A stretch of DNA of 64,000 nucleotides, taken from NCBI GenBank assembly GCA_965153355.1, contig OZ231126.1:24800001-24864000 (forward strand), in the 5' to 3' direction. Below, one piece after another: positions 3,435 to 53,320 of this stretch. The position numbers were made by a program, and so were the translations under genes. Under the pieces are notes generated by a model. That model was given only the letters and a program-made list of their open reading frames with translations. It did no database searches and was not told where the DNA came from. Within the stretch, counting starts at the first letter, position 1, and each line of letters begins with the position of its first letter. The stretch comes from Flaccisagitta enflata (taxonomy: Eukaryota).

Positions 3435-3894
<460 letters not shown>

Positions 3895-4124: not shown

Positions 4125-4160
<36 letters not shown>

Positions 4161-4166
4161 AACAAA

Positions 4167-4328
<162 letters not shown>

Positions 4329-4978
4329 AAAAAAGAAAAGGGGGGGGGGTGAAAAAGTTGAGGTTTGAAAAAAGAGTAAAAGAGTACTGAAAGGGAGGAA
4401 GCAAGAAAGGAATATAACAAGGTCATTAGACCAACGTCGCGTGCGGCATAACTTCCAGAAGAAGAAGTACAGACAGAAAGACTGACAGACAGACAGTCAG
4501 AGAGACAGACAGACAGACCAACAGGCAGACCAACAAAGACTTTCTAAACGATCATGCAGGGTTATTCATCTCAAATGGCAAAAAGTATCAAGCTTTTATC
4601 CCCAAATGTATCTTCAGACAGTTATAAGACTTTTTTTACTCTATAGTACATCGTTTGACGGTTTTTGTGTCAAAATTCCTTGGTCTAGGTCAAGTAGTTG
4701 GGCCACAACATCAATTTGAAGTAAAATGAATATTCACAACTTGAGCTCAATTTACAATGAATTTGCAACAACCATTCTTGCTGTAATTGCAGTTATTTCT
4801 TGACCAATTAAGCATGAGCGTCAAATTTGCCTTGAACTAAAGAATAAATTGGAGATACAGTACAATGGGAGCAAGGACGACCTAGACTGGAGGGTAGATT
4901 TAATGTATCTTAATTTTATTTGATTTATAAAAAGATGGGTTCTGTGCTAATTGAAGGTTGCTTGATTGCTGGAATATA

Positions 4979-5584
4979 ACAGTATGAGCAAAAAATTTTG
5001 CACAAGTCTGATAAAGCATTGAAAAATACTGCAATGCAGGGCAAATATCGTCATGATAATAATCAATTACCTAATTTCAGTAATTTGGAATACTAATGTG
5101 CCAATACTGTTGGCTATGGTCCTTAAATGAGGTTCGGAAAATGAATAATTATGATGGTCACTTGTAGTCTATGTGCCATGACTTTGACTGTTCCTTTGAT
5201 CAAGTGGCATCAGTTTTTCTTCATTTTGTCAGAGAATTCTAATCCCCCTGACCCAATCATCAATTGGTCTGACTATCTGACAAAACGGTAACTTGTTTTG
5301 TACGACAATGACTAGCAGTGGATGCCTAGCAAGAGAAAAACACTTGACTAAGAAGAGTTTTGATCTTTCCAAATTTGGCCAGTAAAATTCGTGCAAAATC
5401 TGGTTGTGCTGTCCAACTTTGATGCCTTCTAATGGGAACAGCAATAGGGAAAGTGATTGACGGCCCATACTACTGTGCAATAGAACTTGTTTTGGGGTTA
5501 TGATCCAAATTTCATCTTTTCAAAGCACCTAGTAGTGATGTTTCTACACTCATATGTTTGTGCAAAATTTTTTGCACATGCTGT
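4979..5584. mobile_element. MITE family M1 copy (opposite orientation)
   Basis: Same 606-bp length, TIRs, TA flanks, and internal homology to 1724-2329. Confidence 0.85.
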
Positions 5585-6913
5585 TATTTGCTTCCCTCAT
5601 CTTTCAACTTGTGACTTGATTTCATAAGGATTTAATTTTTCAATGTTCTAACCTAGCTTATCAAATTGAGCTGAAAATCTTTAAAGATTTAGAAAAAAAA
5701 TCAACTTAATTGGTCTATTTCAACAGGTTTTATGCCTGTTTTAAGCTTTGCCTAGATATCAATTTACATAACTATTCTGTTTAGAAAATAACTGTAAAAC
5801 CGGTAAAAATAGTCCGATTGAGCTGTTTCTTTTTTTGAATTATATAAAATTTTTAGCGAAATCTAATGGGCTAAGTCAAAACATTAAAAAATGAAGTCCT
5901 GATGAAGTAAAGTCACAAATTGAAGAATAAGAAAAGTCAACACATTCAAGCAATAGAGCAACATTTAATTAATATAGATTTCAATTCTTTTAGAAATCAA
6001 ATGAAATTAAGATACCTTAAATCTATCCTCCAGTCTGGGTTGACTTTGCTCCCATCGTACTGTAATAATTCTTTATTGCTTTTTTTAGACTGGCATCTGC
6101 AGCTTGAACTGTTTGAAAATAACTTTTGCCTAATGAATGATTTTGTTTTTTTGAATAAAGAGTTTTTTTGTGGATACTTGTCATTCTTCAAATTGATGCT
6201 GTGGCTAAACTATCTAACCCAGACCAATGAAATTTTACTACATACAGTATGATTTATCTCAATTGTAACATTTTATGATGGCATAACTCAAAAACTAATC
6301 AAGATAATCCAAATCTGAAAAAGTCTCTTGTAGGTATTGGTTTGGCATTTTATGATAATTGGTGTCCAGGATTTTTAAGAATATCTGATCCCCTAAACAA
6401 ACAATTAAACAAAACTCACGCCATACAAAACAAACCATTTTATCCTTTTGTGAAATCTTTTTTTGAGATTGCTTTTTTTGGTTTAAGCTTTTGATGTCAA
6501 ATAGGTCTCAAATACAGGGGTGTATATAACTGAGCGGCTTTTGATTTTATTCCCCCCCCCTGCCTTTGATTTTCTTCCCCGCGACGCGTCGCGTTGCGAT
6601 ACAAAATCTATGATTTTCTTCCCTACAAAGCAATAAAACAGTATATTATAGGTTTAAATGGTGTTGAAATGTGTTGTAGTAATCAAATTTTACCTTTTGG
6701 TACTACCATAAGTGTTGAATCTTCAAAAATTTTCTTTTTTCTTTTTTTCAAGTTTTTGATTTTTTTCCCCATCTCCAAACCTTTTGATTTTATTCCCCCC
6801 CCCGCCGGGGGGGGGGGGGAATGCTCAACTATATACAGGCCTGCTCGAATATAAAGTTTATTGATGTGGTTCATGATAAAAGTGAGAAAAAATTGCACTT
6901 GATTACAATTTAA

Positions 6914-7153
6914 AACAAGGCCGGATACATGGCTACCCCAGTTGCATGCGGGTGGGCAGGGACCGTATTTGAGGTCACTTGATCACTTGGGCAGGAGCAG
7001 TGAGGCCATAGACAGCAAAAACCAAAAAAAATTAAAGTGTGACAGACGGACCGACGGACAGACCGACGGACATACCGACGGATGGACCGACAGACGGACC
7101 AACGGACGGACCGACAAATTGGGGTGTAGAGTCGCGTAGCACGCGACTAAAAA
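6914..7153 (-). mobile_element. DINE-1/Helentron-like non-autonomous element, family HINE-A
   Basis: Termini aacaaggccggatac... and gtcgcgtagcacgcgactaaaaa; internal (GACG/GACC) microsatellite. Confidence 0.75.
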
Positions 7154-8097
7154 AGAAAGAGAAAAATAGCCTTTTTTGGTAAAATTTGCCATAAAGTCTC
7201 TTCTATGTAAAAAGTACTAAAATTTCGAAGAAAATCCTGAGAGATGGTTCTTCATAAAATGCTAAGTAATAACTTTTCATATATTTTTTTCAGAATCAAA
7301 TTATCTCATTAACTTCTTTAGCAATGCCGTCATGAAATGTTGCAGTCGAGCTCGATCATACTGTAAAACGTCAAACAATGTGCTTTTAGATAAAAGAAAT
7401 TCCAGACCTGACAGATTATTAATTTTGGCATAGGAGCTTGATACTTTTTGCCATTTGAGATGAATGACCGTGTAGAATAGTTGGTAACACCCTTAGAATA
7501 TTGAAAATAGGTACCTTTAAAACAATTTTGTGATGGATGGACTGACGGACCAATGGACTAACGGACCAACTGAAAAGTGGCTTACACAGAGTCACATACG
7601 CGTAGCAAGCGACTAAAAATGTAATGAAAAAATCAAAGAAAGAAGAGCGACAGTAAATAAGGCTATATATACACGGCTACCGAAGTCGCGTGCAGGTGGG
7701 CAGGGGCAATGATAAAAAAGGCTAATCAAGCACTTGGGCAGGAGCAGTGATGTAAAAAAAGCCCATAAACACCGAAAAAAGCAAAACAAGTGTTACAGAC
7801 TGACGGACAGAGTGGGTTATGGAGTCGCTGCACTAGACTAAAAAGAGCAAATAACGTATGAAGGAAGTAACGGCTGAGGAACGGGCGAGACAGGAAATAA
7901 CAAGAAGGATAGATTAAAACAGAGAAGACCCAGACTAAAACATGGAGGAAGGGAGGAAAAAGGCATGTAGTGGAGAGCTGGTCATTCGAAGAGAGGAAGA
8001 GCAGGTCGAGACTGATGATGAGAGGAGATGAGGGAGAAGGAAGGGGAAAGTTAGAAGAAGTAGAGAGGACGAACGAAAAGTGGAGGAAGAGATCGTA

Positions 8098-31072: not shown

Positions 31073-34000
31073 ACCAGTAATGGCGGTGGTCGCCGTGAGG
31101 AAAAAAGTCGTAAGTATTGGTCATTTTTCACCAAACTTTTGTCTTTAGTTACTGCAAATCTTTTTTTCTATCAGATCAAATCAAGAGCAATTGTATGAAT
31201 TGATTGCACTGAAAATCAGAAAAAAAGAGGACTGAGCCAACTGAGCTAGATGAGCTAAAATACTCGAAATCACTCAAGCAGACAATCAGCTATGCTCACT
31301 GACATGCTTTCTTGTATTTACATGCTCCCATCAAAACATTCATTTATCCCATTAAAAATCAGTAAAAAGAAAGACTGAGCTAAATGAGCTAAGTGAACTA
31401 AAATGCTTAAAAACACTCTGACAGATGAGCAGTTATGCTCACTGATATGCTTTTTGGGCAGCGGCCCCGAAGGGGTCGATGACCTATGCTTTCACACATA
31501 TGGGGAATTTTCTCCTCCTCCTCCTTCTTCTCCTTCTCCTCCTTCGTACACCCCCTCTCCCCCTTAGTCTAGGATTTAAGGAGAAGGACTCGGCGTTTTT
31601 GGGGCAAAGCATACGGGGTCAGTTTTTGGGCAGCGGCCCCGAAGGGGCCGATGACCTATGCTTTCACACATAGGGGAAATTTTTCCTTCTTCTCCTTCTT
31701 CTTCTTCTTCTTCTCCGTCCACCCCCTCCGAAGCTCATATCCTGGCCTTGGGGCCTAAACCCTAGTCTTAAGGCCCTATTCCTAGTCTTGAGGCCCAAAT
31801 TCTAGTCTCGTGGCCCAAATTCTAACCTCGAGGCCTAAATCCTAGCCTCAAGTCTCAAATCCCAACCTGGAGGCTCAATTCCTAACCTTGAGGCTCAATC
31901 CCAGTCTGGAGGCCGATATCCCAGCCTCAAGGCTCACATCCCGGCCTCAAAGCTCAAATCCCAGCCTCAAGCCTCAAATCCCAACCTCAAGCCTCAAATC
32001 CCAGCCTTGAGGCTCAAATCACAGCCTCAAGGCTCAAATCCTAGCCTAAAGCCTCAAATCCCAGCCTAGAGGCTTAAATAACAGCCTCATGGCTCAAATC
32101 ACAGCCTAGAGACTCAAATCCCAGCCTCAAGGCTCACTTCCCAGCCTAAAGCCTCAAATCCCAGCCTCAGGCCTCAAATCCCAGCCTTGAGGCTCAAATC
32201 ACAGCCTCGAGGCTCAAATCACAACCTTGAGGCCTAAATCACAGCCTCATGGCTTGAATCACAGCCTTGAGGCTCAAATCCCATTATCTATGCTCAAATT
32301 CGATCCTAGAGCTTCAAACCTTACTAAGCATAGGTCATCGGCCCCTTCGGGGCCGCTGCCCCTCTTACCATCTTACACTTACATATACTCGCAAAGGGGC
32401 AACGGGTACCGCTGACCATCTAACGCTTTTGCGACTATTTGTGCTGAACAAGACTAGAAGGGGTACACGTCTGATTTTTTAGTGTACCCCTTTCAAAAAC
32501 GCGTTATTTTGCCCAAAAAACACTTTGAAATGGCGCTGACGCCAAACCAATTGGCGGATGACTATAAAATTTTAGGTGAAGAAAAATATACTTTTTTTCT
32601 ACTTGCATGCAAAATTTCAGCAAAATCGGTTCAGTAGAAGCGAAGATATTGCCGTTTAAAGTTTAGGCCTATTTTCAAAAAAAGGGCTATGTTTCAATTT
32701 TGGGGTAAAATTGTGTTTTTTTGAGCTGGAAGTCTGAAATTGATTTCACTTGCGTATATTACCCTAATTTACTCTAAAAACAAAAAAATTTGAAAAAATC
32801 CCATGTTTTTTTCATTTTATGGCCAAAAAACCACAAAATTGGGTCTCAAAATTTTGGCCTGATTTTCAAAAAGGGCTAGTGCAAGGAAAATATTAAAATC
32901 ATTGGCGCCCACTCGGGGAATCTATTGTCATAAAGTGTACCAACTTATTCCCAAACTTTCAGAGGGGTACATTAACCCAAAAAGACAAAAAATCATTTCA
33001 AAGTCTACAGCAAAAATACCAAAATTCAGCATTTTTTTACCCTTTTTGATATATGGAAAAATTAAATGTTTGATTAGTAAGCTGAAATTTGGCTCAGATA
33101 TGCCCCTAACATATTGGGACTTGCATGCAAAATTTTAGGCAAATCGGTTGAAGCGTTTGGCCGTAGCGTTACCAAATGTCCCTGGGGGTCTAAAAATGCG
33201 AAGTTTTGGGTCGTTTTTTTTTAATTCTTTGAAATTAAATTTTGTCCTTTTGGGTTAATGTACCCCTCTGAAAGTTTTGGAATAAGTTGGTACACTTTAT
33301 GACAATAGATTCCCTTAGTGGGCGTCAATGATTTTCATATTTTCCTTGCACTAGCCCTTTCTGAAAATCATGCCTAAATTTTGAAGGTTGATTTTTTGTT
33401 TTTTTGGCCCAAAAAATGAAAAAAACATGGATTTTTTTCAATTTTTTTTGTTTTTAGGGTAAATGAGGGTAAAATAAATGAGTGAAATCAATTTCAGACT
33501 TCCAGCTCAAAAAAACACAATTTTACCCCAAAATTGAAACATAGCCCTTTTTTTGAAAATAGGCCTAGACTTTAAACGGCAATATCTTCGCTTCTACTGA
33601 ACCGATTTTGCTGAAATTTTGCATGCAAGTAGAAAAAAGGCATATTTTTCTTCACCTAAAATTTTATAATCATCTGTCAATGCATTTGGCGTCAGCGCCT
33701 CTTCAAAGTGTTTTTTTGAAGAAAAAACTTCGTTTTTGAATGGGATACACTAAAAAATCAGAAGTGTACCCCATCTAGTCTTGTTCAGCACAAAAAACTA
33801 ACCCTGTATGCAAATTTTCACGCTTTGCCCCAAAAACGCCGAGTTCTTTTCTTTTATTCCTTTAAGAGACGGGACTACCTAGCGTCCAGGCCCATATCTC
33901 AGCCTGGAGGCCCATAACCCAGTCTTGAGGCCCAAATCCCATTCTTAAGGCCCAAATCCCACCCTCAAGGCCCAAATCCCAACCCCAAGGCCAAGATTCC

Positions 34001-34737
34001 AGTCTCTAGGGATTTGGGCCTCAAGACTGGGATTTGGGCCTCGAGGCTGGGATATGGGCCTCCAGGCTGAGATATGGGTCTGGAGGCTGGGGGGAGGGGG
34101 GAGAGGTGCGGAGGAGGAGAAGGAGGAGGAGGAGGAGGAGAAAATTCCCCATATGTGTGAAAGCATAGGTCATCGACCCCTTCGGGGCCGCTGCCCTGCT
34201 CCCCCTCAACTTCACCCACAACCCACTTAAGCAGGGCACGGGTACCGCTGACCATCTAAAGCTTTTGCGACTATTTCTATCTGCTTTCCTAAACATGTAT
34301 CAAAATATCTATTCATTTATCACATTTAAGATAAAAAAAAGAAACTGAGCTTAATGAGCTAAATAAGCTAGAATCCTCCAAAACACCCTCACAGATGAGC
34401 AGCTATACTCATAAACATGTTTTCTTGTATTTGCATGCTCAAACAAACATGAATACACTTCTTTTTTTATCCTATTCAAAGTCATAAAAAATTGAAAAAA
34501 TTCAATTCACAATTTTCATATATAAATCTTTAAAAAATCATAACGTGAAAAATATTTGTCGTAGAGCATTCTGCTTGGCGCCAAATAAAAGAGAATCATT
34601 AAATTTACTTACCCTATCAATTTCATTGGAGAGCCCATTCGGTCGGTGGAGATCCTCAACTTTCCCATAAGAAAATGAAAACCCTGTTTCTCTCAAATAT
34701 GTCAAAAAGTCGAAGACTGACTTCGACTTTTTTCCCC
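31073..34737 (-). mobile_element. HINE-B element hosting nested HINE-C > foldback > HINE-C
   Basis: HINE-B termini at both ends. HINE-C at 31452-34278, foldback at 31565-33877, inner HINE-C at 31623-32440. Confidence 0.7.
31565..33877. mobile_element. Foldback element with ~600-bp inverted arms
   Basis: 32440-33000 is complementary to 33240-33795. Outer ends tagtc..ctcggcgtttttggggcaaagc / gctttgccccaaaaacgccgag..gacta; CCT flanks. Confidence 0.8.
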
Positions 34738-36334: not shown

Positions 36335-36961
<627 letters not shown>

Positions 36962-37079
36962 TTTTTGGGCAGCGGCCCCAAAGGGCTGATGTCCTGTAGG
37001 ACACAGGGGCTGAAAATTATGTACGTCCTTCCGTCCTTACATACCCCCCCCTCTGAAGCTTCTCAAGCCTCTCAGGACT

Positions 37080-37104
37080 GATTTGATTTTGATTTTGATT
37101 TTGA
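37080..37104 (-). repeat. 3' tandem-repeat tail of the LINE, (TCAAAA)n
   Basis: Plus strand gatttgattttgattttgattttga directly abuts the left TSD. Confidence 0.85.
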
Positions 37105-37640
37105 ACTTTTAATTGCAATATGAGAAGCAGTATCCAATAAAGATGCAATATCAAGTACAAAGCCGTTCTAAACAAACACTGGATTCTAAGTCTGAGTATA
37201 CGACAGAACCGGCTAGGAGCGTTGCCGAAGACGAGGACATACAAGTGCCGAAGCCATATCAGAGACATATGGTCATGCCCGTATACAAGTTAAAGATACA
37301 ACCGGAGTTAGACAACTACATCCTACGTCTTTGCGTAGCGCGGATCGGCTGCGAAAATTATAATTGAAAAAAGGGGGAGGGAACACGGAGATGGGAGGAA
37401 AACAAAGTTCGCAGTTACCGGGTGGTGAGCTTTCGCACCTCAAAATAAACATAGGAATGAGTAAAGTCAATCACAGGGACAATTTGTTTTCGGCGGTTTT
37501 CTTTCTTCGCCTGTTTATCACAGCTAAACCTACTGCCGCCATGGCTTACGCGTTATGAGGTAGTGTCAAAATTAATATGTCTTCTCTCGTGGTTTGTCGA
37601 CGATACAGTTGATCGGGTGCAAGTTTGGCATCCCACATAA

Positions 37641-39224
37641 TCAATCATCTGATTCTTCTTCGTCGGAGTTATCACGGTCGCGTTTCGGATCGCTGTTTTC
37701 CTTTTCTCGTGTGTTCCCTTTGGCGGGCTTCTTTCCACGTGGGACGCTGAGCGGGGCGTTGTCCAGCTCTTCCTCGGTCATATCCCTGTAGACGATTTGG
37801 CGATTTTCTCCTTCGCCGAATTCCCAGACCATCGTTCCTCGTGAAGCATTCGCACCCGTGACGCGGTCTGCCGCGCTGCTGTGATAGGCGCAGCATCCGA
37901 ACGTCAGGACGCTCGCCACTGACGCGTCCGGGCCCAGGGCGCCGCCTTTTTGGACGAGGGCGGCGAGCGGATGCAGCTGGAGACCCGATCTTTTCTTCTT
38001 CTTAGGCTCATCCATCTTCTTATGAGCTTTGATGGAGGAGGCTCTTGCCGCGTCGATCTCGCGGTTCAGTGCTTCGGCGCTGGAGTGCAGCTCGTTGATT
38101 TGGCGTCTCATCTTTACCGTACCTTGGCGAGCTTCCTCGAGGAGAACTTCTTCGGCGCTGTCTCCTATCGAGCTAAGAGCATCGGGGTTGCTCGCGACGA
38201 CTCTTCGCTGGGGCGGCGGTGAAGGAGACGACGACGTCGCTTGTTCGAGCGGGACGTATCTGCTTTCCCCACGTGGATCGGCTGGTGATAATGGGAGTGG
38301 AGTCGCAGTCTTTCTTGCAGTCCTCTTCACCTCCGGCGCTTTGAGGGCTTTTTGGATGATTCCAGCAGCTGCCTCTCTCTTGCTTCTGTGTTTGAGGTCC
38401 GCAGTTAACGCGGCACTAGCGGCTTTGACCTTGCTAGACGGCGGGGCATGTCCGGCGGTTGGTGACCGGATGTGGGAGAGAAGAACGCAGTCGTCATCTG
38501 CGTTTGCGTTCTCTTCTTCCCCCTCATCTTCTTCTGGGCTGATCTCCTCCAGTTGACTGGGAGGAGAAGGAGGCGGCGGCGGGCGGGCGGCGTCTGGGTG
38601 ATTGCGGAATTCCATTCTCTCCGCTCTAACTCGCTCTGCTCTTCTCCATGCTTCCCAGTCGCTGACGATCCATCCGACGGGCTTCTTGGAGAGATCTTGT
38701 ATCTTGGAGAGTTCAAGACGTCTTTTCTTTAGGAACGCTTTCCAGGCTTCGTCGTCCTGCTTTTGTTCCTCCTGATCCCGGTCAAACGGATCTTCGGGAT
38801 CAGGAGCTTGCTCGTCCTCGTCGATCCCTCTACGACTGGCGGTGCGCCTCGATTGGTCGGCACGATCCTGACGGGAGGTATCTGGAGACCGATCTGATCC
38901 ACGAATAGAGCCGCGGGGTTCCACTCGGGTCTCGGCGCGCGTGTGGCGTCGATCGACACGAGGCTCGTTGCGATTGTCAGCGCGAGTGTTCTCACGCTGG
39001 TCGGTACGAGATTCGGCGCTGCGTGGTTGGCGTTCAGGAGATCCGGCCGGAGTGTTGTGGCCAGCGGCGCGTCGGCTGCTTCGGCGTCTCGAACTATCGC
39101 GTGACGGCGGCAACGATGGAGCGGTCGCGCCTTCCTCTTCGTTGGCGTCAGTGCGGCAACTTCCTCGCTCTCGATCGCCTTCGGCGTCCGCCTCCCGATT
39201 CTCTCTGTTCGGACGTTTTGCCAT
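37641..39224 (-). CDS. LINE ORF3, protein of unknown function (527 aa from ATG 39224; frame open up to ATG 39587, 648 aa)
   Basis: Long stop-free, non-microsatellite, GC-rich frame inside the TSD-bounded element, on the same strand as ORF1/ORF2. R/E/S/P-rich, with NLS-like KKRR and PKKKKR and a coiled-coil-like segment. Confidence 0.8.
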   Translation of the reverse strand: MAKRPNRENREADAEGDRERGSCRTDANEEEGATAPSLPPSRDSSRRRSSRRAAGHNTPAGSPERQPRSAESRTDQRENTRADNRNEPRVDRRHTRAETRVEPRGSIRGSDRSPDTSRQDRADQSRRTASRRGIDEDEQAPDPEDPFDRDQEEQKQDDEAWKAFLKKRRLELSKIQDLSKKPVGWIVSDWEAWRRAERVRAERMEFRNHPDAARPPPPPSPPSQLEEISPEEDEGEEENANADDDCVLLSHIRSPTAGHAPPSSKVKAASAALTADLKHRSKREAAAGIIQKALKAPEVKRTARKTATPLPLSPADPRGESRYVPLEQATSSSPSPPPQRRVVASNPDALSSIGDSAEEVLLEEARQGTVKMRRQINELHSSAEALNREIDAARASSIKAHKKMDEPKKKKRSGLQLHPLAALVQKGGALGPDASVASVLTFGCCAYHSSAADRVTGANASRGTMVWEFGEGENRQIVYRDMTEEELDNAPLSVPRGKKPAKGNTREKENSDPKRDRDNSDEEESDD

Positions 39225-39493
39225 CTGGGGGGAGCAAAGTGGATATGGATTGGTTTTATAGAAGTGAGAAGACCTGCGAGTACCTGCAGCATTCCATGGG
39301 TTATTTGAATATATAAACGAAGAACCAAACAAAGAAGAGTATGGATTGTTAAATATGAATGTCACCATGTTGTCACTGGTACACATGCTGTACTGGAGGA
39401 ATCTTACAGCTTTATCGATAATGAAACCGATATCAACCCCACAGATCTTTGGGTATCTTTCTCTCAGGATAGCTTTGGCTGCCCAAGCACAAA

Positions 39494-42442
39494 TTAGGAT
39501 AAAGTTGTTGGCCTGTGTAAAGAACATAGTTTGTGAGTAGATGGTCGTGGCAGTGGTTTCGTCATGCCGTCTGGAGTGTAAGTACATATAATGCAGTTGG
39601 TATTTGTTAAGCGGTCGTCAAGTCCCGAGATGGTCGTCAATTTTTCAAAAGGACTTTTGAATTTGTTCCTATTGCTGGTCACACAGCGTGTTTGAAATTT
39701 GGTCATGTTCGGGTTGTTGTTATTCATTGCACAAAATCTGTTTGCTGCTCGAGATTGAATGATCTCCTTGAAGGAGGGGGTGTTTATTATGTTGAATACC
39801 GCGTGGTCGGGTGTTCGTCGGGGTACGTTGAGTATGCCTTTGAGCGTTCTCATTTGGCATTGGTGTATCTTATTCCAGTGGCAAGTTGCTGCATTTATCC
39901 ATGCGACTGAGCTATAATCGAATAGTGAGATGATTAAGCTGTTGACCAATTGCAAGATGAGCCCGTTGTCACGTCCGTATAGGGCAGAGGCTAATCGTCT
40001 TATTTGGATGCTGCGTGGGGTTGCTTTTTGGATGAGCTTGTTTATGTGTTTAGCCCATGTCAACCCTTGGTCGAAGGTCACGCCGAGGAAGCACACTTCT
40101 TTAACTGTTCTCAGTCGTTGGCCGAAGAGTTGTAGTGTTGTCTCGTGGTTTCTATTTAGCGTGGAGTCACTGAAGATCATTACCTCCGTTTTAATAGGGC
40201 TTGGGAGCATGCGCCACTGACTCCCCCACCTTTGGAGGGCGTCAAGGTATTTTTGGATTTCCACTTCAGCTATGCGGAGGCCTGATTTCGTTTTTAGGAA
40301 GGCCCTCCACTCGGCGTTGTCGTCGGCATAACCCGATCCATCGCTGCGAGTACAGACGACGTCCATAGTATCGGATCCAGGCACGTCAGCGATGAAATAT
40401 GTGAAGATCGGAGGGCTCGACGTGCCGCCTTGGGGGGCCGATGCGCCCAATTCCCTAACTGTCGAGAGGATGTCGCCGTCCTTTATCTGGAAAGTGCGGT
40501 TCAGAAGAAAGCTTGCTATTATTTTTATGAGCGGGAGTGGAGCTTCGTCTTTGAGGAGTTTGTAGAGGACACCGTTGTGCCATAATTTGTCGAACGCTTT
40601 TTCGAGGTCGATAAAGACGCCGATGACGTGCTGTCCCTTCTTAAAGGCATTTGATATATCGTCGGCTAGCTTTATGATCGATTCCTGTGCACTTCTGCCT
40701 TTGGCGAATCCACATTGGCGAGCGCGTCTTTTGTTTTTTTCGTCTAGGAATCTGTTGAAGGATTTTAGGTATATTTTTTCGAGGATTTTCCCCATTGTGG
40801 CGCAGAGTGAAATGGGGCGATAATTACCACTTTTTGTCGAATCTTTTCCTGGTTTCGGGATCATTGTAACCCAACTGAGCTTCCAGGATTTCGGGAAGTA
40901 TGACGTCGCTACACAGGCGTTGAAGATGATCACCAGTCTTTTGATGGCAAGATTAGTAAATCGCTTAAGTAGGTAGTGATCAATACCATCGGGGCCCGCC
41001 GCCCCGGTTGGTTTAATGGCTTTGATTAAATTGGTTGTTTCCTCTTCAGTTGTCATCATGAAGGTTCTCTCATCATCGAATGCGATCTCGTCGATGTTGT
41101 TGCAGATTGTTGGTTCTCCTATGTCACAATAATCACTAGTTAGATGGTTGTCGACGGCTTCTGTGAAGGCGCTGTCGATACGGGGATCGTCGTCGAGGTT
41201 GCACGTTTGCTCGAGGCGATTGGCGTGTGTCTCTACATTTTCTTGCCGATTTTGACATTTGCTCCCGTCGTCTCGTGTTAAGGCTTTGAAGGATACACTT
41301 TTGTTGTTCCGGTTCATGATCGCATTCATTTTTTTCCACCGTTTCTTCGGACAACTTTCTTTTAATACTTCCGTTCCTTTAAGTTTGAGGTGTTGTTCTT
41401 CGTCTTTTTTGATTTGTCGCTTTATTTCATGTTCGAGGTAGTTTGATCGTTGGCGTTCAGGTGATGTGAAGTTGGCTCTGTTACGAGTGCGTTTCCTTAT
41501 TAGGCGTCGTCGTTCTGCGATTAATGCGTTGGTTTCGGCGCTGAGTACGACGCCGTCGTTTGTTCTAAGGCGTTTGGTGTGTGTCGCGTCTTTTTTTCCT
41601 TTTATGATGCACTCGGTGAAGTTCACAATTTCCTCGTCGATCATTTTAGCGTCGAAACGTTGGTCGAGTTTTATTTTACTTGGGTTCTCCAGGAGGTAGC
41701 GGTCGATGTTTTCACATAGTTGTTCGTTGTTCACTATGTCGATATACACAGGCTCATTGCGTTGGCGCATTTTTAGATGTAAGGAGATCGGGAGGTGATC
41801 ACTTCCGACGGGATCGTCGACACTGTAGCACATAAGGATTTCGTTTGCCTTTTTATTCACAAAACACATGTCGAGGACGTTGTCGTCGCCACGTTTGTTG
41901 TTGATATATGTTGGAATTTTATTTTTCACGTATGAGAAATCGTTTGATTCTGTTAGAATGCGGAGTACCTCACCATTCGTTGAGTCAAAGTTGCTTCCGA
42001 AAGAGCGTAGGCTTGAGTTGAAGTCGCCGAGTAGTATCGCTGGATTTTCCGCCCCCGCGATGTTTGTTAGGGTGGTGATTAGTGAATCATCGATTTCATC
42101 TCCGGGATGCACATATTGGGTTCCGACTATGATGTTTTTGTTTCCGATCACTATTTTACATATCATAGATTCTTTATTCCTGGTGTCGATGGGAGTAACG
42201 AAATATTTTTTTGGGATGGCCATTGCCACCCCCCCGGCGTATCTTTCACGTTGTGGGTCGTTTTTAATTATGACATTGTGGTTCTTAAGTGTCGTTTTGT
42301 CTTCGTCTTCTGCGTGGAGTCGGCAGTCGTTTATAATAAAGATATCGTTTGTACATTCTTTACAGTTTATTCTATTTACAAGTTGTGTCAATCTAGTGAA
42401 GTTACCATTGCTATTGATGGCGGTGCATCTGATGTTATCCAT
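39494..42442 (-). CDS. LINE ORF2: apurinic endonuclease-like domain + reverse transcriptase (no RNase H seen)
   Basis: APE motifs INSNG, GGVA, YVHP, LLGDFNS, PTY, LDMCF, GSDHLPI. RT motifs AAGPDGI, WK..V..IPKPGKD, NYRPISL, QCGF, FIDLEKAFD, PQGG..SP, YADD, FLGVTFD. Possible Cys/His motif at the C-terminus (CIIC...HKLC). Confidence 0.97.
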   Translation of the reverse strand: MDNIRCTAINSNGNFTRLTQLVNRINCKECTNDIFIINDCRLHAEDEDKTTLKNHNVIIKNDPQRERYAGGVAMAIPKKYFVTPIDTRNKESMICKIVIGNKNIIVGTQYVHPGDEIDDSLITTLTNIAGAENPAILLGDFNSSLRSFGSNFDSTNGEVLRILTESNDFSYVKNKIPTYINNKRGDDNVLDMCFVNKKANEILMCYSVDDPVGSDHLPISLHLKMRQRNEPVYIDIVNNEQLCENIDRYLLENPSKIKLDQRFDAKMIDEEIVNFTECIIKGKKDATHTKRLRTNDGVVLSAETNALIAERRRLIRKRTRNRANFTSPERQRSNYLEHEIKRQIKKDEEQHLKLKGTEVLKESCPKKRWKKMNAIMNRNNKSVSFKALTRDDGSKCQNRQENVETHANRLEQTCNLDDDPRIDSAFTEAVDNHLTSDYCDIGEPTICNNIDEIAFDDERTFMMTTEEETTNLIKAIKPTGAAGPDGIDHYLLKRFTNLAIKRLVIIFNACVATSYFPKSWKLSWVTMIPKPGKDSTKSGNYRPISLCATMGKILEKIYLKSFNRFLDEKNKRRARQCGFAKGRSAQESIIKLADDISNAFKKGQHVIGVFIDLEKAFDKLWHNGVLYKLLKDEAPLPLIKIIASFLLNRTFQIKDGDILSTVRELGASAPQGGTSSPPIFTYFIADVPGSDTMDVVCTRSDGSGYADDNAEWRAFLKTKSGLRIAEVEIQKYLDALQRWGSQWRMLPSPIKTEVMIFSDSTLNRNHETTLQLFGQRLRTVKEVCFLGVTFDQGLTWAKHINKLIQKATPRSIQIRRLASALYGRDNGLILQLVNSLIISLFDYSSVAWINAATCHWNKIHQCQMRTLKGILNVPRRTPDHAVFNIINTPSFKEIIQSRAANRFCAMNNNNPNMTKFQTRCVTSNRNKFKSPFEKLTTISGLDDRLTNTNCIICTYTPDGMTKPLPRPSTHKLCSLHRPTTLS

Positions 42443-45400
42443 TCTTGCTGATGTCTTCCAGGCCGCTCGCCGACATCGTCGGGATATGGACTGCCTCGGC
42501 CAAAGGATCTTGGGGGCTTTGGCTTGACGATGCTTGTGTCCACGATTCTGGGATACCGGATATGGTTTTTGTATTGATTACTAGCAGGTTGCCCATGTAA
42601 GCTATTTGGGCGTTCGATAGGTCGACTTTTTTTAGCCCCATTGCCTGACCTGTCGTTGCTTGCAGCTTCTTCAAGTCCTGCGGATCCAACTGCGGCATCA
42701 TTGGCATCGTTGGCGGTGATGACCTGCTCTCTGTATCCTTCGAGTTGCCCGTCGCTGTAACGGATGTCCTGACTTCCGAAGCAGGGACTTCTTGGCCTTC
42801 GTTGCTGACACCTGTGCGAGAATTCCCAGTCGCAGGTTGTATATAGCTAGCTTGTTTTTGGTTATCGCCTACCAACTTACTAGCTGCCAACCTGCTGCTG
42901 GAGGAGGAGTTATCTGGCACTTTGGGCGCTGTGTTGTCCTCGTCACTCGACTCTGAAGACGAGTCTTCCTCTTCATCCCCTTCTGTATCGGATTGATCTT
43001 GATTCCCCGGATTCTCGGGGTCTTTCCAGTCCCCCAACATCGACCCTGCGTCATTCGGGGCAATGTGTTGAGTAAGTTTTGATAGGAATTCTTTGAGGTT
43101 CTTATTTTGGATGTCAATTTTCCTTTCAATTGCAGTCATGCGCTTTTTCTGCCCCTTTTTTGTGGCCTCCTGCTGCTCTTGGAGGGTTTGTTGACCTTTC
43201 ACTAGTTCGCTTACAGTTTTCTCTAGTGATGCTATTCGAGAGTCAGTGTCATTTATGTACTTCTGAGCCTCTTCAGTCATTGGTCTCTGTCCGTTCCCTC
43301 TTAGCCTTGGCCACGCTGTGCCACTTCTGTTAGGGAGACTTATTTCTTCTTGTGTTGCAGGGGTTATATCTGCCCAGGATGCTGAGGTTGCTGCTGTTTC
43401 TAAGGTTACCTCGGGTTGTAGTGCCCTCCCGTCCATTTGGGATTGCGGATTTATGTTGTTACCTTTATTGTTACCTTGATTGTCTGTGGCGCCTTGCTTA
43501 CCGCCTCGCTGTTCTCTTCTCCTTTGGAGCATACTCTTCCAATTGATGTTTCTTGGGCAATCTTTTGAGTTGCTCCTATGGGCGCCTCCACATCCGGAAC
43601 ACTTGACGTCATTGGGGCATATGTTGCTTTGCCACTCGGAAGGTATGTTCGTAGCGCCTTCTGGGTACTTCTCGTGATGGCCCGTTTGTCCACATTTGCG
43701 ACAGCGTCGGTCGTAGACACATTGGGCCCCGTGATGCCCGTACCTGTGGCATTCGCGACACTGTCCCGTGCGGAAATCTCGAAAGATATCGCATGAATAT
43801 CTTCTGACGCCGATTTCGATTGTGCCTTCTGCAACGCCGCCTCCCGGGTTGATGATTTTGCGAACATTTTCTTTGCTCGTAGTTGTAATTTTCACATCGC
43901 GGGACAGGCGATTGGCGTTGGTGGGGTCAGATGCTCTGGTGACGGTGATTACTGATGTGACTTCGATGCCCATGGCTTCCAGGTATCTTTGTATAGCTTC
44001 ATTCCTAAGACTGCTGAGAACGCGGAAGAGAATCACCTCGAATGTCGGAGTATTCGGGGCGTCGAGTTGGGCGTTGATGGGCCCATGTTCAAACGTTGCC
44101 CAGGCGTTTTGGTCGAGCGCGACGTTCCTAGATCGGTCGTCGTGCATATGAAGGATGATGGAGTTCTCATTTCTTTTGTCGAAGTAGCAGGATGTGCAGC
44201 TTATACCGGATTTGAAGGAGCGGAGTTGGCGAATGAGACTTGCTCCAATGCGATGGATGCATCGTTCCATATCCGGATTGTTAATGAGATTGGGGCAGTG
44301 TACCCTCACCCGTCTGTACGATTTCGTCCTCGGATCCACTTCGTCATTTCCCTCAGATCCTCCCGGGATGCCTCCAGACAGACCGGCGTCTTGTTGGGAG
44401 CTTGCGCCGTCTATATTGTTATTATTACTTCCGGTTGGCAGACCGAGAGTTGCGACGTCATTGTCTGCGGTAGCTGGTGATGCAGACGTAGCGGTTGTCA
44501 AGGTGGCAGCGGGGGTGGAGGTGGCGTCGGTATTGGTGTCGGAGTGTGCGGCGGCGGCTGCGATCACTGCGACGGCAGCGGCAGGGGCGATTGGCATGTT
44601 GTTATTAGGAGGTGCGACAGAGACTCGCCTTGTGCTAGTCGCGTGGATCGAGAGACTTGTGTCGATGTCCATTGGTTGCAGATCGTCATCGGCGTCTTTC
44701 TCGTTAATCCTGCGCTGTGCTTCTTTGGCGCAGTCTTCGTCACTTTCCGACAGATCCCGGTCGGCTTCTCCATTTCCCGCGGCGGCCGGCGGGAGCACTA
44801 CACCATTCTTTGCTTTGGTTTTTTTCTTTCTACTTTTCCTACCGCTTTTTGTGGGAGAGTCTGGGTTGTCAGATGTTTTGTGTCTGTTTTCGTCATTTCC
44901 GTCGTCGGCCATTTTCGCGTGATCGATGTTAACTTCAACGGTAGAGGATGTGGAGCTTACCGTGTCAACTCTTTCACTCGCTGCGTGTGTTGTCGATGTT
45001 GCGGTGTCGCTCCCGAAGACGAATACCGAACCAATCTCCTCGAATGACGACACTAGTGAAGCTACTTGACCGGTTTCGGGTCTCGTTGACGACTTGGGGC
45101 GCTTGTTTTCTTCCTCCGAATTCGGGTCGCTGAGAACACGTTTATGATTTCTTTTGGCGTTTTGTTTTTCGTTATCACGGGTATTGTTAATCTCTTTATC
45201 TGCAATGGAAAGAGAAGGGGGTATGATTAGACGGTGCGTGGTTATATCACAATTTTCGTATACAACTTGATTCTCGGCACTAGCATTAGTTGGGTAATTT
45301 GGCAGCCTCCTGCCTGTGCCCCTTTTCCAATCCGCGAGTCGGTGCTTTCCGGTTTTATCTATATTTTTTTCAGATTTCGTAGATTCATCCGTAGATTTAT

Positions 45401-45797
45401 TCGACAGTGTGATGATCTTCGAGCTCAGTTCCTTTAGTTTCGATAAGTTCGATGCGATCTGATTGGCGCTTTTTGAATTCGGCGCTTTAGAAACATGGCC
45501 GCCTCCTTCGTCGTAGCTCAATTGTAGGGGTTTAAGTGTGCGTTGAACCCCGGCTTCTATTTCCGCGCGAGTTGCCGCCTGCCTGCTTCCGATCGAGCCG
45601 ATGCCGCCGATTGAACCTGGTGGCCTGCCCCGTGGTAGACTTTTGGGGCTGTTTTCTGCCGCTTTTGTCGAATTTAAGCGCGATCTTGTTCTCATGCCAC
45701 TCGAACTTTGTGGCGGCGAGTATACATTTGCGTCGACGTTTTTTCTTCGCGATGCGTTGAGTTGTTTTTGCGTTTTCTCCGCGTTTTTATTTACCAC
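42435..45797 (-). CDS. LINE ORF1, gag-like nucleic-acid-binding protein with three CCHC zinc knuckles and a C-terminal coiled coil
   Basis: 1120-codon frame. Knuckles CRECHRYGHHGAQC, CRKCGQTGH..C and CSGCGGAHRSNSKDC (~43557-43760), preceded by an RRM/pre-C2HC-like segment (FEVILFRV...). The track start is GTG; the first ATG is at 45695, so the start is uncertain. Confidence 0.9.
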   Translation of the reverse strand: MVNKNAEKTQKQLNASRRKNVDANVYSPPQSSSGMRTRSRLNSTKAAENSPKSLPRGRPPGSIGGIGSIGSRQAATRAEIEAGVQRTLKPLQLSYDEGGGHVSKAPNSKSANQIASNLSKLKELSSKIITLSNKSTDESTKSEKNIDKTGKHRLADWKRGTGRRLPNYPTNASAENQVVYENCDITTHRLIIPPSLSIADKEINNTRDNEKQNAKRNHKRVLSDPNSEEENKRPKSSTRPETGQVASLVSSFEEIGSVFVFGSDTATSTTHAASERVDTVSSTSSTVEVNIDHAKMADDGNDENRHKTSDNPDSPTKSGRKSRKKKTKAKNGVVLPPAAAGNGEADRDLSESDEDCAKEAQRRINEKDADDDLQPMDIDTSLSIHATSTRRVSVAPPNNNMPIAPAAAVAVIAAAAAHSDTNTDATSTPAATLTTATSASPATADNDVATLGLPTGSNNNNIDGASSQQDAGLSGGIPGGSEGNDEVDPRTKSYRRVRVHCPNLINNPDMERCIHRIGASLIRQLRSFKSGISCTSCYFDKRNENSIILHMHDDRSRNVALDQNAWATFEHGPINAQLDAPNTPTFEVILFRVLSSLRNEAIQRYLEAMGIEVTSVITVTRASDPTNANRLSRDVKITTTSKENVRKIINPGGGVAEGTIEIGVRRYSCDIFRDFRTGQCRECHRYGHHGAQCVYDRRCRKCGQTGHHEKYPEGATNIPSEWQSNICPNDVKCSGCGGAHRSNSKDCPRNINWKSMLQRRREQRGGKQGATDNQGNNKGNNINPQSQMDGRALQPEVTLETAATSASWADITPATQEEISLPNRSGTAWPRLRGNGQRPMTEEAQKYINDTDSRIASLEKTVSELVKGQQTLQEQQEATKKGQKKRMTAIERKIDIQNKNLKEFLSKLTQHIAPNDAGSMLGDWKDPENPGNQDQSDTEGDEEEDSSSESSDEDNTAPKVPDNSSSSSRLAASKLVGDNQKQASYIQPATGNSRTGVSNEGQEVPASEVRTSVTATGNSKDTESRSSPPTMPMMPQLDPQDLKKLQATTGQAMGLKKVDLSNAQIAYMGNLLVINTKTISGIPESWTQASSSQSPQDPLAEAVHIPTMSASGLEDISKNG

Positions 45798-46813
45798 CGT
45801 TTTCGATCTATCTCCGTTGAGACCAGCGTCTTCATGGTCTTTATTGTTTTTAGAGCCGCCTGCTCTCGGCTCCGTCCGCTTGCTTGTTTGCCCGCTTCTC
45901 GTCAGCTTTTACGATTTGTATGAAAGTCACATGTTTAGATTTATAATGATTCCTTCGTCGATTGAATGTTGTTTGTGTTGGTGAACGGCACTTGGGGAAG
46001 CTTTTTCGGGTATAAGTTTTTAATGTTTAATGTTAATAGTTAAAGACTAGTTTTTGCCAAGGCGTTCTGTGTTCGATTTCGACGTTGGTCGCGCAGAAGT
46101 CCGCCGCCCACCGTCGAGAGCGATCCCGGAACACCTTTAAACAAGTGAAGTAGTAGAAATTAGCTTCAGGACTCAAATCCAGCCTCTCAGGCCTCAAATC
46201 TGGCCTCTCAGGCCTCGAATCTGGTCTCTCAGGCCTCAAATCTGGCCTCTCAGGCCTCAAATCCATCCTCTTAGGCTTAAAATCCAGCCTCTTGGGACTC
46301 AAATCCAGCCTCTCAGGCCTCAAATTAAGCCTCTTGAGCCTCAAATCCAGCCTCTTGGGCCCTAAATCTAGCCTCTCAGGTCTCAAATTCTCATTGAATA
46401 ACAAGGCAAATTGACAAAAAATTAAAAAAGAATTCAAAATTCCCAATGAATATTATGTAAAATTACCCCAAATATGCCCTCTCAAGACTGATGGAAATTC
46501 ACCCCTGTGTCCTACAGGACATCGGCTCTTTGGGGCCGCTGCCCTGCTCTCACTCCACTTTTTCAGCTCATCACTCTAAGTAGGGCATCGGGTACCGCTG
46601 ACCATGTGCAATCCTTGGATGACTATTTCTCTCTCTGTCCCTCTCTCTCTCTTTAACCTCTTCTCTTTCTTTTGAATATACCAATGAACACCTGCGTACA
46701 TCACATGATTTTTTTGGCCCAGGATTGATTCTAAGTGAACAACGAACTTCCTGAAAACATTGATCTCTTTCAGGAGCAGTTGGTTGGTCAATCTGAAAGG
46801 AGCAAGACTCATA

Positions 46814-48485: not shown

Positions 48486-49613
48486 TGTGGGGGCCTTGAG
48501 CCTGTCCTGTTTGCGGATGACACCAATATCTTTGCAGAAGGGAGGGACCCCGCTGAGCTTGCTGGGAGGGTGAACAGGGGGTTGGGTATGCTCAGCGAGT
48601 GGTTTAGATGCAACAGACTGACTCTGAATCTGAAAAAGACAGAGTACGTCTACTTTGGCCGACCTGGGGGGGGTGGGGACCTACCAGGGGGTATAGTGAT
48701 AGGGGGGAGCAGGTGAGGCGAGTTGGGGAGGGTAGGTTCCTGGGGGTGTGGGTGGACAGGGGGCTGAAGTGGGCGGGCCAAATAGATAGGGTTAGGACAA
48801 AGGTGGGGCAGCTTCTGGGGGTGATGGGGAGGGCGGGGCGGTTCCTTAGTGGGCGGTCTCTTCTTTCGCTCTACAATGCGTTGGTTCTCCCCCACCTTCA
48901 GTACTGTCTGATGGTGTGGGGTGACTTCAAGGGGGGGCGGAACCTGACAGTGGGGGCATCACTGCTCAGGTACCAGAAGCGCTTTGCGGGGTTGATAGCT
49001 GGCTACAGGGGGACCTACCATGCGGACCCGCTTTTTGCGGAGCATGGGATGCTGAAGGTGGGGGACCTCTACCGGCAGCAACTCCGGGTCCATGCATGGC
49101 GCTTCTGGAGGGGTAGGCTGCCGGAAAATCAGGCTGCCATGTTGAGGAGAGTGGGGGGTGTGCATTCCCATGCCACAAGGGCGGCGGGCTCGTCGCTGTT
49201 TCTTTCTACACGGGACCACGGGTCGGTTGGGTACAGGGTCCCAAAGGAGTGGGCATCTGTCCCGGTGGAGCTGAGGGGGGTTCCTTCCCTTGCGGCCTTC
49301 AAGCGTAGGTCCAGGGGGGCCTTTCTGTCTGAATATGCCCAGTTTGTCTGTACGGCGGCGGGGTGCCGCGTTTGTGCCTGGCAGGACTCGCAGCATGGAC
49401 AGGACTAGGGTGGTCTTTGTTTCTTGTGTTTGTCTCTGCTCATCTGAAACTTTTAGTGAATTACTGATTTTGCTTCCCGAGTTAAATGGCTGTGCTAAAA
49501 ACTTTTTTACTGTGTGCAATCGATATGCGTAATTCTAATCACAAGCAGCAGGAGAGAGTCATTGGAAAAAAAAATAAGAAATAAAAAAATAACAAAAACG
49601 ACCAAAAATTGAC

Positions 49614-51277: not shown

Positions 51278-53320
51278 CTCAATGGTGCCTTTGAGTGTGT
51301 CATTATTCAGTAGCCTCAAATCAGCCATCCTAAGCATTTAATCAGTTCTTTCAGGCCTAAAAGTACTCTCCACTTGGCTCTCTTACATAGGGCACAACAG
51401 CAAATTCTTTTATTTACCATCAACTAGCTGGACAATTTTTGACCTTGCTATGAGTTTCTGTTTCAAGCAATTAAGATTCAATAATACTTGTTGGATCCCA
51501 AGAATCAGGTCCTTTAATCAAAATGGGACAGACCTCTCAAGCACGGGATGTTTTAGATTTTGTTGTCTTTCTGGACCTCCTAAACCTCAAATCCGCTTTG
51601 AGCCCTCTAGCCTCACCAAAATCAGCCTTCAGGTTTTTGGGCAGCGACCCCTAAGGGGACAAAGTCCTGTGGAACATGGGGGACTTTCGTTGATACTACT
51701 GTCCGTTCTTTTGTTACTTCTTCCCCCCAGGCCCTCTCAGGCCTGAAATTTGCTTTCTCAGGCCTAAAATCTGCCCTCTTAGGCCCGATATATGCCCTCT
51801 TAGACCTTGAATCTGCCCTCTCAGGCCTGAAATTTGCCCTTTCAGAGCTGAAACCTGTCCTCTCAGGCCTTAAATTTGCCCTCTTAGGACTGAAATATGC
51901 CCTCTCAGATTCAACTTTGTTGCTGCTTTTTGGGCAGCGGCCCCGAAGGGGATGAAGTCCTGTAGAACGCAGGAAGACTTTTGATCATCCATTCATTCGT
52001 TTGTTTGTCCAATCATTTGTAAGTCCCCCCAGACCTTCTCAGGCCTGAAATCTGCCCTCTCAGGCCTGAAATCTGCCCTCTTAGGCTTGGAATCTGCCCT
52101 CTCAGGCATTAAATCTGCCCTCTCAGGCCTGAAATCTGCTTACTCAGGCCTGAAACCTGTCCTCTCAGTCCTTAAATCTACTTTTGCAGATCCAAGGTTT
52201 GAGAGGGCAGATTTCAGGCCTGACAGGGCAGCTTTCAGGCCTGAGAAGGCCTGGGGGACTACTAAATGAATGGACTAACAAAAGTCTCGTGTTCTACAAG
52301 ACTTCATCCCCTTTGGGGCTGCTGCCCTAGTTCCTCTCATTCTAATTTACAATGATGCAAAGCAGGGTAATGGGTATCGCTGACCACTTATTGCCCTTGG
52401 GCGACCTGTTGGCTCTTACATATTCATAATTACAATATCTTTGCATTCAAGCCATATTTTGGACAAATTTGATCTATTTTGAACAGTTATCTAACGGTTC
52501 ATTGGACTTGTGCCAAATTTCCTGCTCAGGGTGTTCATAGGCTTCTCAGGCTTCAAATCAGGCCTGAAATTAGCCTTCTCAGGCCTCATATTAAGCTTCT
52601 CAGGTCTCTTAGGACTAATTCAACCCTATCAGACCTCAAATTAGCTCTTTTAGGGCTAGAATCAGAACTAAGGGGAATCAGCCCTCTCAGGCCCGGAATC
52701 AGTCCTCTCAGGCCTGGAATCAGCCCTGATAGGTCTCTAACAAGCCCTTGCAGGCTTCTTATTATCCCTCTTGGATTCCAAGGCCACAAATTATAGATGG
52801 AGAGGACAGACAAATGAACCCCTGCTGCCTTGCTTCCCTCCACTCAAATATACAGGCAAACAAAGCAGGGCAATGGGTATCGCTAACGGCACATTACCCT
52901 TATCAGCTTTCTTGTACCTCAACCAGGTTTGTTCCGCCCTGAAGCAGATCTGTGGTCTTAATAAGGCCTTGAAGCAGCGCTCTCGCCATCCATGATTGGA
53001 GGCCTTGGTCTGGATAGGAGCTTTAGGTGTAAGAGAAATGACGAGATTGAAAGAAATTTCAGGCCTATGGTGGTTATTTAAAAGACTGTAAGAGCTGATT
53101 TCAAGCATTAGTATGTTGAATGAGGGTAAGCCTAGGGGGACAGATAGATTGACAGAAGTGTGAAAATTTCCCCCCCCCCCCATGTCCTACAGAACATCAT
53201 GACCTAGACAGTAGATTTGGGGTTTGGAGGTACCCCAAATAGCTGGGATTCTTGAAAGGTCTGATTTGAGGTTTGACAGGAACTCACCTAATACAATTAC
53301 ACAAATACACGCACACACAC

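Follow-up and report, generated by a model that had tools for sequence, protein, structure and literature searches.

The window analyzed here is a stretch of 64,000 nucleotides of the Flaccisagitta enflata genome (assembly GCA_965153355.1, contig OZ231126.1, positions 24,800,001 to 24,864,000 of the forward strand), and all positions given below are counted from its first letter. On its reverse strand lies a long interspersed nuclear element (LINE) in which a gag-like open reading frame (ORF1) and an ORF2 coding for the reverse transcriptase (RT) are followed by a third long frame, ORF3. As a rule, LINEs are regarded as having one or two genes. Here, we report that ORF3 is probably (we put this at about 62%) a genuine third gene, kept by selection as a part of the element, in a LINE family that has an apurinic-type endonuclease (APE) and is active or was so until recently. 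Evidence comes from the length of the open frame, its conservation in marine relatives, and its linkage to ORF2 in other copies.

The element and its third open frame

By all features tested, the element is an APE-type LINE (Table 1). It has no long terminal repeats (LTRs), carries an 8-nt target-site duplication (TSD; AGTCCTGA) and a simple-repeat (AAAATC)n tail, and has the endonuclease domain N-terminal to the RT in ORF2. Pfam matches of ORF2 are RVT_1 (9e-24, residues 528-790), Exo_endo_phos_2 (1.5e-13, residues 109-219), and Exo_endo_phos (2.1e-6, residues 12-216), with no RNase H among them, and the sequence matches in the PDB are human L1 ORF2p (2e-14) and R2 structures. The closest named relatives of ORF2 are polymerases automatically named "jockey" or "BS" at 30-34% identity; the relatives as a whole step down from 95% to 55, 52, 51, and 52%, and then to 34% or less. 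Both these automatic names and the layout of the domains, with a CCHC gag and without RNase H, point to the Jockey/CR1/I group. ORF1 gave no Pfam match at E<=0.1; it has long low-complexity regions at both its N- and C-terminus, is unusually long for a LINE gag, and its stop overlaps the ORF2 start by 8 nt (ATGGATAA).

Table 1. Coordinates of the LINE and its parts in the window
Feature	Position	Strand	Description
Whole LINE	37080..46165	-	9086 nt between both TSD copies; both ends read directly
TSD, 5' copy (AGTCCTGA)	46166..46173	-	8 nt, within 21-nt satellite array 46166-46388
First ~30 nt, like a host trans-spliced leader (SL)	46136..46165	-	GC-poor, ends TTTAAA; from read depth and contig joints
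5' untranslated region (UTR)	45696..46135	-	From ORF listing and sequence reading
ORF1	42435..45695	-	1086 aa, gag-like, CCHC-type knuckles (CRECHRYGHHGAQC and others) by reading
ORF2	39494..42442	-	982 aa, apurinic-type endonuclease and RT
ORF3 from first ATG	37641..39587	-	648 codons and stop; -1 frame relative to ORF2
ORF3 head	39390..39527	-	From conserved ATG 39527 (M21, MFFTQA...); motif ERYPxICGVDxGxIID
ORF3 linker	39225..39389	-	Unconserved; ends in pyrimidine run and CAG directly before ATG 39224
ORF3 body	37644..39224	-	From M122 (MAKRP...) to invariant SDEEESDD end
3' UTR with (AAAATC)n tail	37080..37640	-	From sequence reading; tail is 37080-37104
TSD, 3' copy (AGTCCTGA)	37072..37079	-	8 nt

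From stop to stop, the ORF3 frame runs over 658 codons (37641..39617). When the 2514-nt region was simulated 5000 times with a first-order Markov model, the open run averaged 133 codons and never exceeded 323, and we therefore do not attribute the frame to chance. The ORF listing agrees with a preliminary description of this DNA, which had counted 648 codons from ATG 39587 and 527 from ATG 39224 on the strand of ORF1 and ORF2; the frame is, as stated there, no microsatellite, and its translation holds every motif that had been quoted (KKRR, PKKKKR, DDDCVLL, a Trp-rich helix, and CCAYH). The same description had placed the 3' tail at 37104: the tail exists and ORF3 does lie inside the TSD, but 37104 is only the inner border of the tail, the element ending at 37080, and 537 nt of 3' UTR precede the repeat.

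The conserved ATG 39527, with which the head of ORF3 begins, sits 33 nt upstream of the ORF2 stop. In the body, an Arg-rich disordered region is followed by Trp-rich helices, an acidic/hydrophobic motif, a basic helix, a RYVPL..SSSPSPPP..RRVVA block, a coiled coil, a basic cluster, a C-terminal domain of ~80 aa, and the terminal SDEEESDD; in its composition (Q121-D648, 528 residues), Arg and Ala account for 12% each, Glu and Ser for 10% each, and Pro and Asp for 8% each.

Conservation of ORF3 and linkage to the LINE

Briefly, a word-indexed search with ORF3 residues 120-648 as the query scored 8000 candidates, seven of which passed the threshold of E<=0.01, with identities of 83, 67, 66, 42, 36, 35, and 39%. 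All seven come from ENA marine contigs of 1.1-7.3 kb and stand for 31 member sequences, a single cluster holding as many as 14 nearly identical sequences from different contigs. A profile of these homologues, scored exhaustively against 1.84 billion representative proteins, found 11 proteins at E<=0.001, all of them members of this family or pieces of such members and at most 604 aa long; it adds nine fragments, including the more divergent C-terminal pieces P0156, P0159, and P0160, all of which end in EEESDD. This exhaustive search gave no homologue outside the family, including none in any other organism's proteome, and a scan of JGI metagenomes with the ORF3 alignment produced 265 pattern matches, of which 0 were confirmed. 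At E<=0.1, Pfam has no family for the ORF3 of the window (P0001), the best E among eight members being 0.069; the PDB profile search stopped at noise (best E 1.7), the ESM Atlas offered no usable match, and no similarity to ORF1 was found (best E 0.51). The earlier remark that no homologue is recognized thus holds for Pfam, PDB, the ESM Atlas, and the profile search alike.

A frame of 600-650 codons is kept open in five full-length ORF3 lineages, down to 35% identity, and the conservation along it is mosaic. Compared with the lineages of 35-42% identity, the C-terminal domain is identical at 45-48 of 78 positions, the RYVPL..SSSPSPPP..RRVVA block at 17-19 of 25, the Trp-rich helices at 27-30 of 63-66, and the last nine residues at 8 of 9, SDEEESDD being terminal in every sequence that reaches the end; the linker is identical at 6-7 of 37, with gaps, and the coiled-coil segment at 7-10 of 56. 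The head (21/46 against P0008 and 22/46 against P0009) is conserved above the whole-protein identities of these two lineages, 36% and 35%, respectively; in P0007, which is shorter at its N-terminus, the figure is 9/20. Seven homologues (P0004, P0005, P0008, P0009, P0155, P0158, and P0162) begin with Met and then F or L. Amid the unconserved linker, Q-M-A-K-R at codons 121-125 is invariant, Q-M being present in all six homologues that cover the position. Other conserved short motifs are the RR in FxKxRR, the three Trp in GWIxxDWEAW, KTARKT, SSSPSPPP, an acidic run and hydrophobic triplet followed by SP, a basic cluster before L-x-[LM]-HP-[LF], and the terminal SDEEESDD. This mosaic, which persists where silent sites must be saturated, is the pattern expected of a protein under purifying selection. 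As for CCAYH, which the preliminary description had taken for a small C-terminal region, its His and the surrounding domain are conserved but both Cys are not (FGLLGIH, YGFLGIH, and FALSAIH in relatives); a zinc-binding reading is therefore unsupported.

Other copies of the element tie ORF3 to the LINE. A total of 1798 contigs, in many variants, align to the element in X1, a DNA run of the source organism, and cover its whole length with a summed depth in the thousands, i.e., the element is multi-copy. Summed depth per bin is ~3,000-6,300 in ORF3, 3,600-7,200 in ORF2, and 2,100-4,200 in ORF1, the lower value of the latter being expected because LINE copies are 5'-truncated. ORF3, whose absence from sibling copies had been named beforehand as the observation that would speak against it, is thus present at a depth like that of ORF2. 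With eight differences, an 881-nt contig (38853-39733) from a marine metagenome run (X2) spans both the stop of ORF2 and the start of ORF3. Within the 83% lineage, P0176 and P0182 (ORF2 proteins of 982 aa) are encoded on contigs of 7260 and 6199 nt, and P0004 and P0011 (ORF3 proteins of 630 aa) are on contigs of 7260 and 6199 nt, too. According to a dual-coding script, a single DNA in the geometry of the window is able to hold both the 11 final codons of P0176 (or P0182) and the 11 initial ones of P0004 (or P0011), and none of the three mismatched pairs (P0035/P0004, P0176/P0005, and P0002/P0004) is compatible in this way; the equal contig sizes and the dual-coding fit therefore indicate that ORF2 and ORF3 are adjacent in the 83% lineage, with the same 33-nt overlap. 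In the 67% lineage, P0161 extends upstream of the conserved Met (MYHMYLHPRRHDETITATINSQT), much like the ORF3-frame reading of the ORF2 3' end in the window (MYLHSRRHDETTATTIYSQT), which implies that ORF2-tail DNA probably precedes ORF3 there as well. A one-off 3' transduction or a nested insertion is ruled out by the similar depths of ORF3 and ORF2 in X1, the bridging X2 contig, and the two sister contigs. Taken together, the homologues, the depth in sibling copies, and the linkage in the 83% lineage agree with the three-gene LINE family of the preliminary description, in which ORF3 is a part of the LINE unit; the expectation that ORF3 stands behind a similar RT is confirmed by two independent contigs of the 83% lineage, with no match for the lineages of 35-42% identity.

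Genomic copies also differ within ORF3. Listed indels in ORF3 comprise one deletion of 3 nt and, within a single contig, a -2/-1 pair that likewise nets 3, unlike the 3' UTR, where +6, +1, +2, -1, and -1 are listed, i.e., non-multiples of three occur. Substitutions were classified for 40 of 377 differences: eight in ORF3 are synonymous and eight are not (seven and five from codon 122 on), compared with 12 and one in ORF2 and five and three in ORF1, and three are non-coding. At codon 98 of ORF3, two changes co-occur and give Gln, not a stop. On the same sister contig, 950 of 982 ORF2 residues are identical to the window and 522 of 626 ORF3 residues (6 gap positions), from which the ORF3 protein appears to change about five times faster than ORF2.

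Several observations weigh against a third gene kept by selection. The amino acid divergence of ORF3 between the window and the 83% lineage is 16.6%, and judged from the protein alone, near-neutral evolution over this short span would be possible; neutrality is argued against by the intact frames and the in-frame indels. Stops in the ORF3 of some genomic copies are possible, the classified differences being 40 of 377. No contig of equal size was found among the ORF2 fragments for P0007-P0010 and the other distant lineages, 0 of 48 ORF2-tail/ORF3-head pairs are dual-coding compatible, and the 6.1-8.7-kb contigs with a 55%-identical ORF2 (P0036 cluster) show no size match to an ORF3 protein. On the RNA level, ~6% of a polyA RNA run (X21) gave 0 reads on the element, the presence of the host in that run being without control, and a metatranscriptome (X16) gave a single ORF3 contig of 159 nt at a depth of 2.2. 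Nor does any structural or protein-family match speak for a function of ORF3. The fast evolution, the largely low-complexity and disordered protein, and the lack of RNA evidence for ORF3 would all suit a passive passenger, i.e., an old 3' transduction or expanded UTR that is open by luck and has no function for the element. Such a passenger would, however, have to hold 600-650-codon frames free of stops in five or more lineages, the most distant at 35% identity, together with invariant motifs and in-frame-only indels, and a chance frame is excluded; this explanation is highly improbable to us and already largely refuted.

The base composition bears on where ORF3 came from. The body has a GC content of 0.59, compared with 0.40-0.41 for the head and linker before it and 0.45 for ORF2, and because of this shift at the linker-body border (M122) the body may have been acquired. 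If it was captured by the LINE from the host or from another element, the distant homologues could represent a free-standing gene. Such a capture is also in line with the isolated invariant stretch QMAKR where the body begins, right after the pyrimidine run and CAG, and with the fact that no physical RT link was found for the lineages of 35-42% identity. In contrast, the distant homologues, too, begin with a conserved head (21-22/46), the part that overlaps the ORF2 stop in the window, near-identical members lie on up to 14 different contigs per cluster, and the exhaustive search returned nothing from any other organism's proteome and nothing above 604 aa. A spliced-leader relic upstream of ATG 39224, which would be in keeping with a capture from a trans-spliced mRNA, is not significant, 636 of 5000 shuffles scoring as well. 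We consider a captured free-standing gene rather improbable and prefer ORF3 as a gene of the LINE family itself.

Expression, predicted protein, and surroundings

All three ORFs would be read from one RNA, and ribosomes ending one ORF would most likely restart on the next. Such termination-reinitiation coupling is suggested by the 8-nt overlap of ORF1 and ORF2 and by the position of the ORF3 ATG 33 nt before the ORF2 stop. Two other routes were considered and rejected, namely a -1 frameshift from ORF2 into ORF3 (the overlap contains no slippery heptamer of the X XXY YYZ type) and a cis-intron from GCT-GTAAGA (39407) to CAG-ATG (39225), the donor residues of which are not kept in relatives (IIDRIT...).

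The 5' end of the element seemingly carries a spliced leader. Summed word depth in X1 is ~169,000 in the last bin (45905-46180), compared with 2,000-7,000 over the rest of the element, and in X2 the leader-like stretch has a depth of 1,700 compared with ~12. Seven X16 contigs have the stretch at a contig end (six of the seven) or at most seven letters away from it, joined to unrelated sequence, and in two RNA contigs the match extends to 46167. Moreover, 62 X1 contigs run on after the leader into a shared GTGAGTA-type sequence, a splice donor. The pattern occurs once in the window. These features look like the signature of a trans-spliced leader and of its gene, in which the shared sequence would be the intron of the SL RNA gene. 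The TSD encloses the leader, and the copied RNA was therefore apparently trans-spliced and leader-capped. Our literature search for the leader sequence found no paper.

A second possible route for ORF3 is thus opened, in which the host leader would be joined to the CAG before ATG 39224 and give a separate ORF3 mRNA. The DNA at Q-M (CTTTGCTCCCCCCAG) makes a good 3' splice acceptor and is followed immediately by the start codon ATG, and since the host appears to trans-splice, an SL-ORF3 mRNA starting at M122 is possible as a real alternative or additional isoform. One may go further and suppose that ORF3 is expressed from its own mRNA instead of by reinitiation, with the leader spliced either at this CAG or near 39570, which resembles the downstream genes of operons and concerns the mechanism only, ORF3 remaining a LINE gene. 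The apparent use of a spliced leader by the host, the leader at the start of the element itself, and the acceptor with its Q-M invariant in 6/6 covering homologues are favorable to this view; the in-frame head upstream of the acceptor, conserved together with its first Met, is not, nor is the fact that no RNA contig or read has such a joint, RNA coverage being essentially nil. We regard an own mRNA in place of reinitiation as unlikely, though worth keeping in view, and retain translation of ORF3 from the LINE RNA.

Structural prediction of the ORF3 protein (ORF3p) indicated mostly disorder. The AlphaFold model of the full length, based on a 35-row alignment, has a mean predicted local distance difference test (pLDDT) score of 43.0 and is disordered except for helices at 267-328 (block pLDDT 52-77), 384-415, and 477-519; the C-terminal 124 aa alone reach 54.8 and form two helices and a beta hairpin. 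At such pLDDT values, a fold search on these models would carry little meaning. Among the short motifs of ORF3p, the RR of the KKRR motif is invariant, a basic cluster stands before the C-terminal domain in every lineage seen, and the acidic-hydrophobic pattern with SP is kept in four lineages (ADDDCVLLSHIRSP, EEDDVEVLSIINSP, EEDDEVEVVDVIKSP, and DIDDDDVIFAGETKSP). SUMO-interacting motifs (SIMs) have a V/I-x-V/I-V/I hydrophobic core with acidic or phosphorylatable flanks, and CK2 recognizes S-x-x-E/D, a pattern that the serines of SDEEESDD fit.

From this, ORF3p may be a non-enzymatic, multivalent adaptor with nuclear and host-docking motifs. It would be mostly disordered, arginine-rich, and oligomerizing, with a basic cluster like a nuclear localization signal, an acidic-hydrophobic SIM-like motif, Ser/Pro sites, and a CK2-type acidic C-terminus for docking, and it would travel with the LINE ribonucleoprotein and link the LINE to the nuclear or chromatin machinery of the host. 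The basic cluster, the SIM-like motif with SP, and the invariant RR may be said to fit this nuclear or chromatin guess without demonstrating it, and the roughly five-fold faster divergence of ORF3 relative to ORF2 fits a host-facing role. A wider and more speculative picture, which we hold tentatively and consider doubtful as a whole, is a three-gene LINE whose fast-evolving third protein is directed at the host and which does without its own promoter, its RNA gaining the host spliced leader. ORF3p would then act against silencing or for nuclear/chromatin targeting, like a retroviral accessory gene, and with a pyrimidine-rich leader that ends in AAAG at the start of each copy, read-through transcripts could be trans-spliced again there.

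The surroundings of the element are rich in repeats. The insertion point of the LINE borders on a 21-nt satellite array. The 20-21-nt satellite, with a unit of about GGCCTCAAATCCAGCCTCTCA, forms arrays at 31752-32283, 33888-34091, 46166-46388, and 51731-51908. A 43-nt inverted repeat, 95% identical (36967-37009 and 46502-46544), brackets the LINE plus its satellite flanks, with (GA)n tracts directly outside it on both sides; the LINE seems to have landed within a foldback-like structure or one resembling a miniature inverted-repeat transposable element. Long (CT)n and (AC)n microsatellites are also present in the window, including 628 nt of CT at 36335-36962. On the forward strand, the product of an open frame of 266 codons (48608-49408) resembles the C-terminal part of a LINE RT, and 48704-48919 within it is a tblastn match to ORF2 of this element (33% over 75 aa); the frame is a fragment of a different, GC-richer LINE. 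Rfam gave 0 matches on the window.

Comparison with known systems

The nearest known design is that of two-ORF APE-type LINEs with a CCHC gag-like ORF1, which we take to be of the I/Jockey/CR1 kind. Our element shares with them the CCHC ORF1, an ORF2 with APE and RT and without RNase H, the TSD, the short tandem-repeat 3' tail, and the overlapping ORF1 stop and ORF2 start. It differs in the conserved sense ORF of ~600-650 codons after ORF2, in the unusually long ORF1 (1086 aa), and in its spliced-leader-like 5' end. Stop/start translational coupling was reportedly described by Kojima, Matsumoto and Fujiwara in 2005 for the LINE SART1 (UAAUG). The overlapping stop and start of consecutive ORFs is common to both, here as ATGGATAA and as the ORF3 ATG 33 nt before the ORF2 stop, whereas the 33-nt overlap is longer than in the classical case.

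Primate L1 has an additional ORF0 (Denli et al. 2015; PMC5203782), which is likewise a protein-coding ORF beyond ORF1 and ORF2 in a LINE. It is antisense, lies upstream of ORF1, codes for 71 aa, and is primate-specific; ORF3 is sense, 3' of the RT, ~630 aa long, and conserved to 35% identity. Other additional ORFs of non-LTR elements are described as upstream ORF1-type genes (PMC7140322), the numbered "ORFs" of a shrimp element are fragments (PMC3849965), and ORF3s are described in LTR, Penelope-like, and DIRS elements (PMC5408684, PMC7998251, PMC5006619). Among these, the LTR retrotransposons and Penelope-like Athena elements of bdelloid rotifers (Rodriguez, Kenefick and Arkhipova 2017; PMC5408684) resemble our element as retroelements with an additional ORF downstream of the polymerase gene; they are a different class of element, and their ORF3s have env-like, GDSL esterase, and DEDDy exonuclease domains, whereas the LINE ORF3 matches no family. 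In the literature searched, with Repbase reports and subscription journals outside its reach, we found no sense ORF3 in LINEs.

For LINEs starting with a spliced leader, nothing turned up in the literature searched apart from elements of trypanosomatids, which have internal promoters or target SL genes, and the SL-tagged retrogenes of dinoflagellates. The latter are DNA copies that start with a spliced leader and show that trans-spliced RNA is reverse transcribed (PMC12014239, PMC5585692); they are retrocopies of host genes, whereas here the tagged RNA is that of an autonomous LINE with a different leader of ~30 nt. If the spliced-leader 5' end is general in the family, it would bear on how 5'-complete LINE copies regain expression.

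Set beside these systems, ORF3 looks like a real, so far undescribed accessory gene. If this is true, a conserved sense gene 3' of the RT adds an accessory-gene layer to the biology of non-LTR retrotransposons, and ORF3 becomes a concrete candidate for the dealings of a LINE with its host, be it import, targeting, or escape from silencing.

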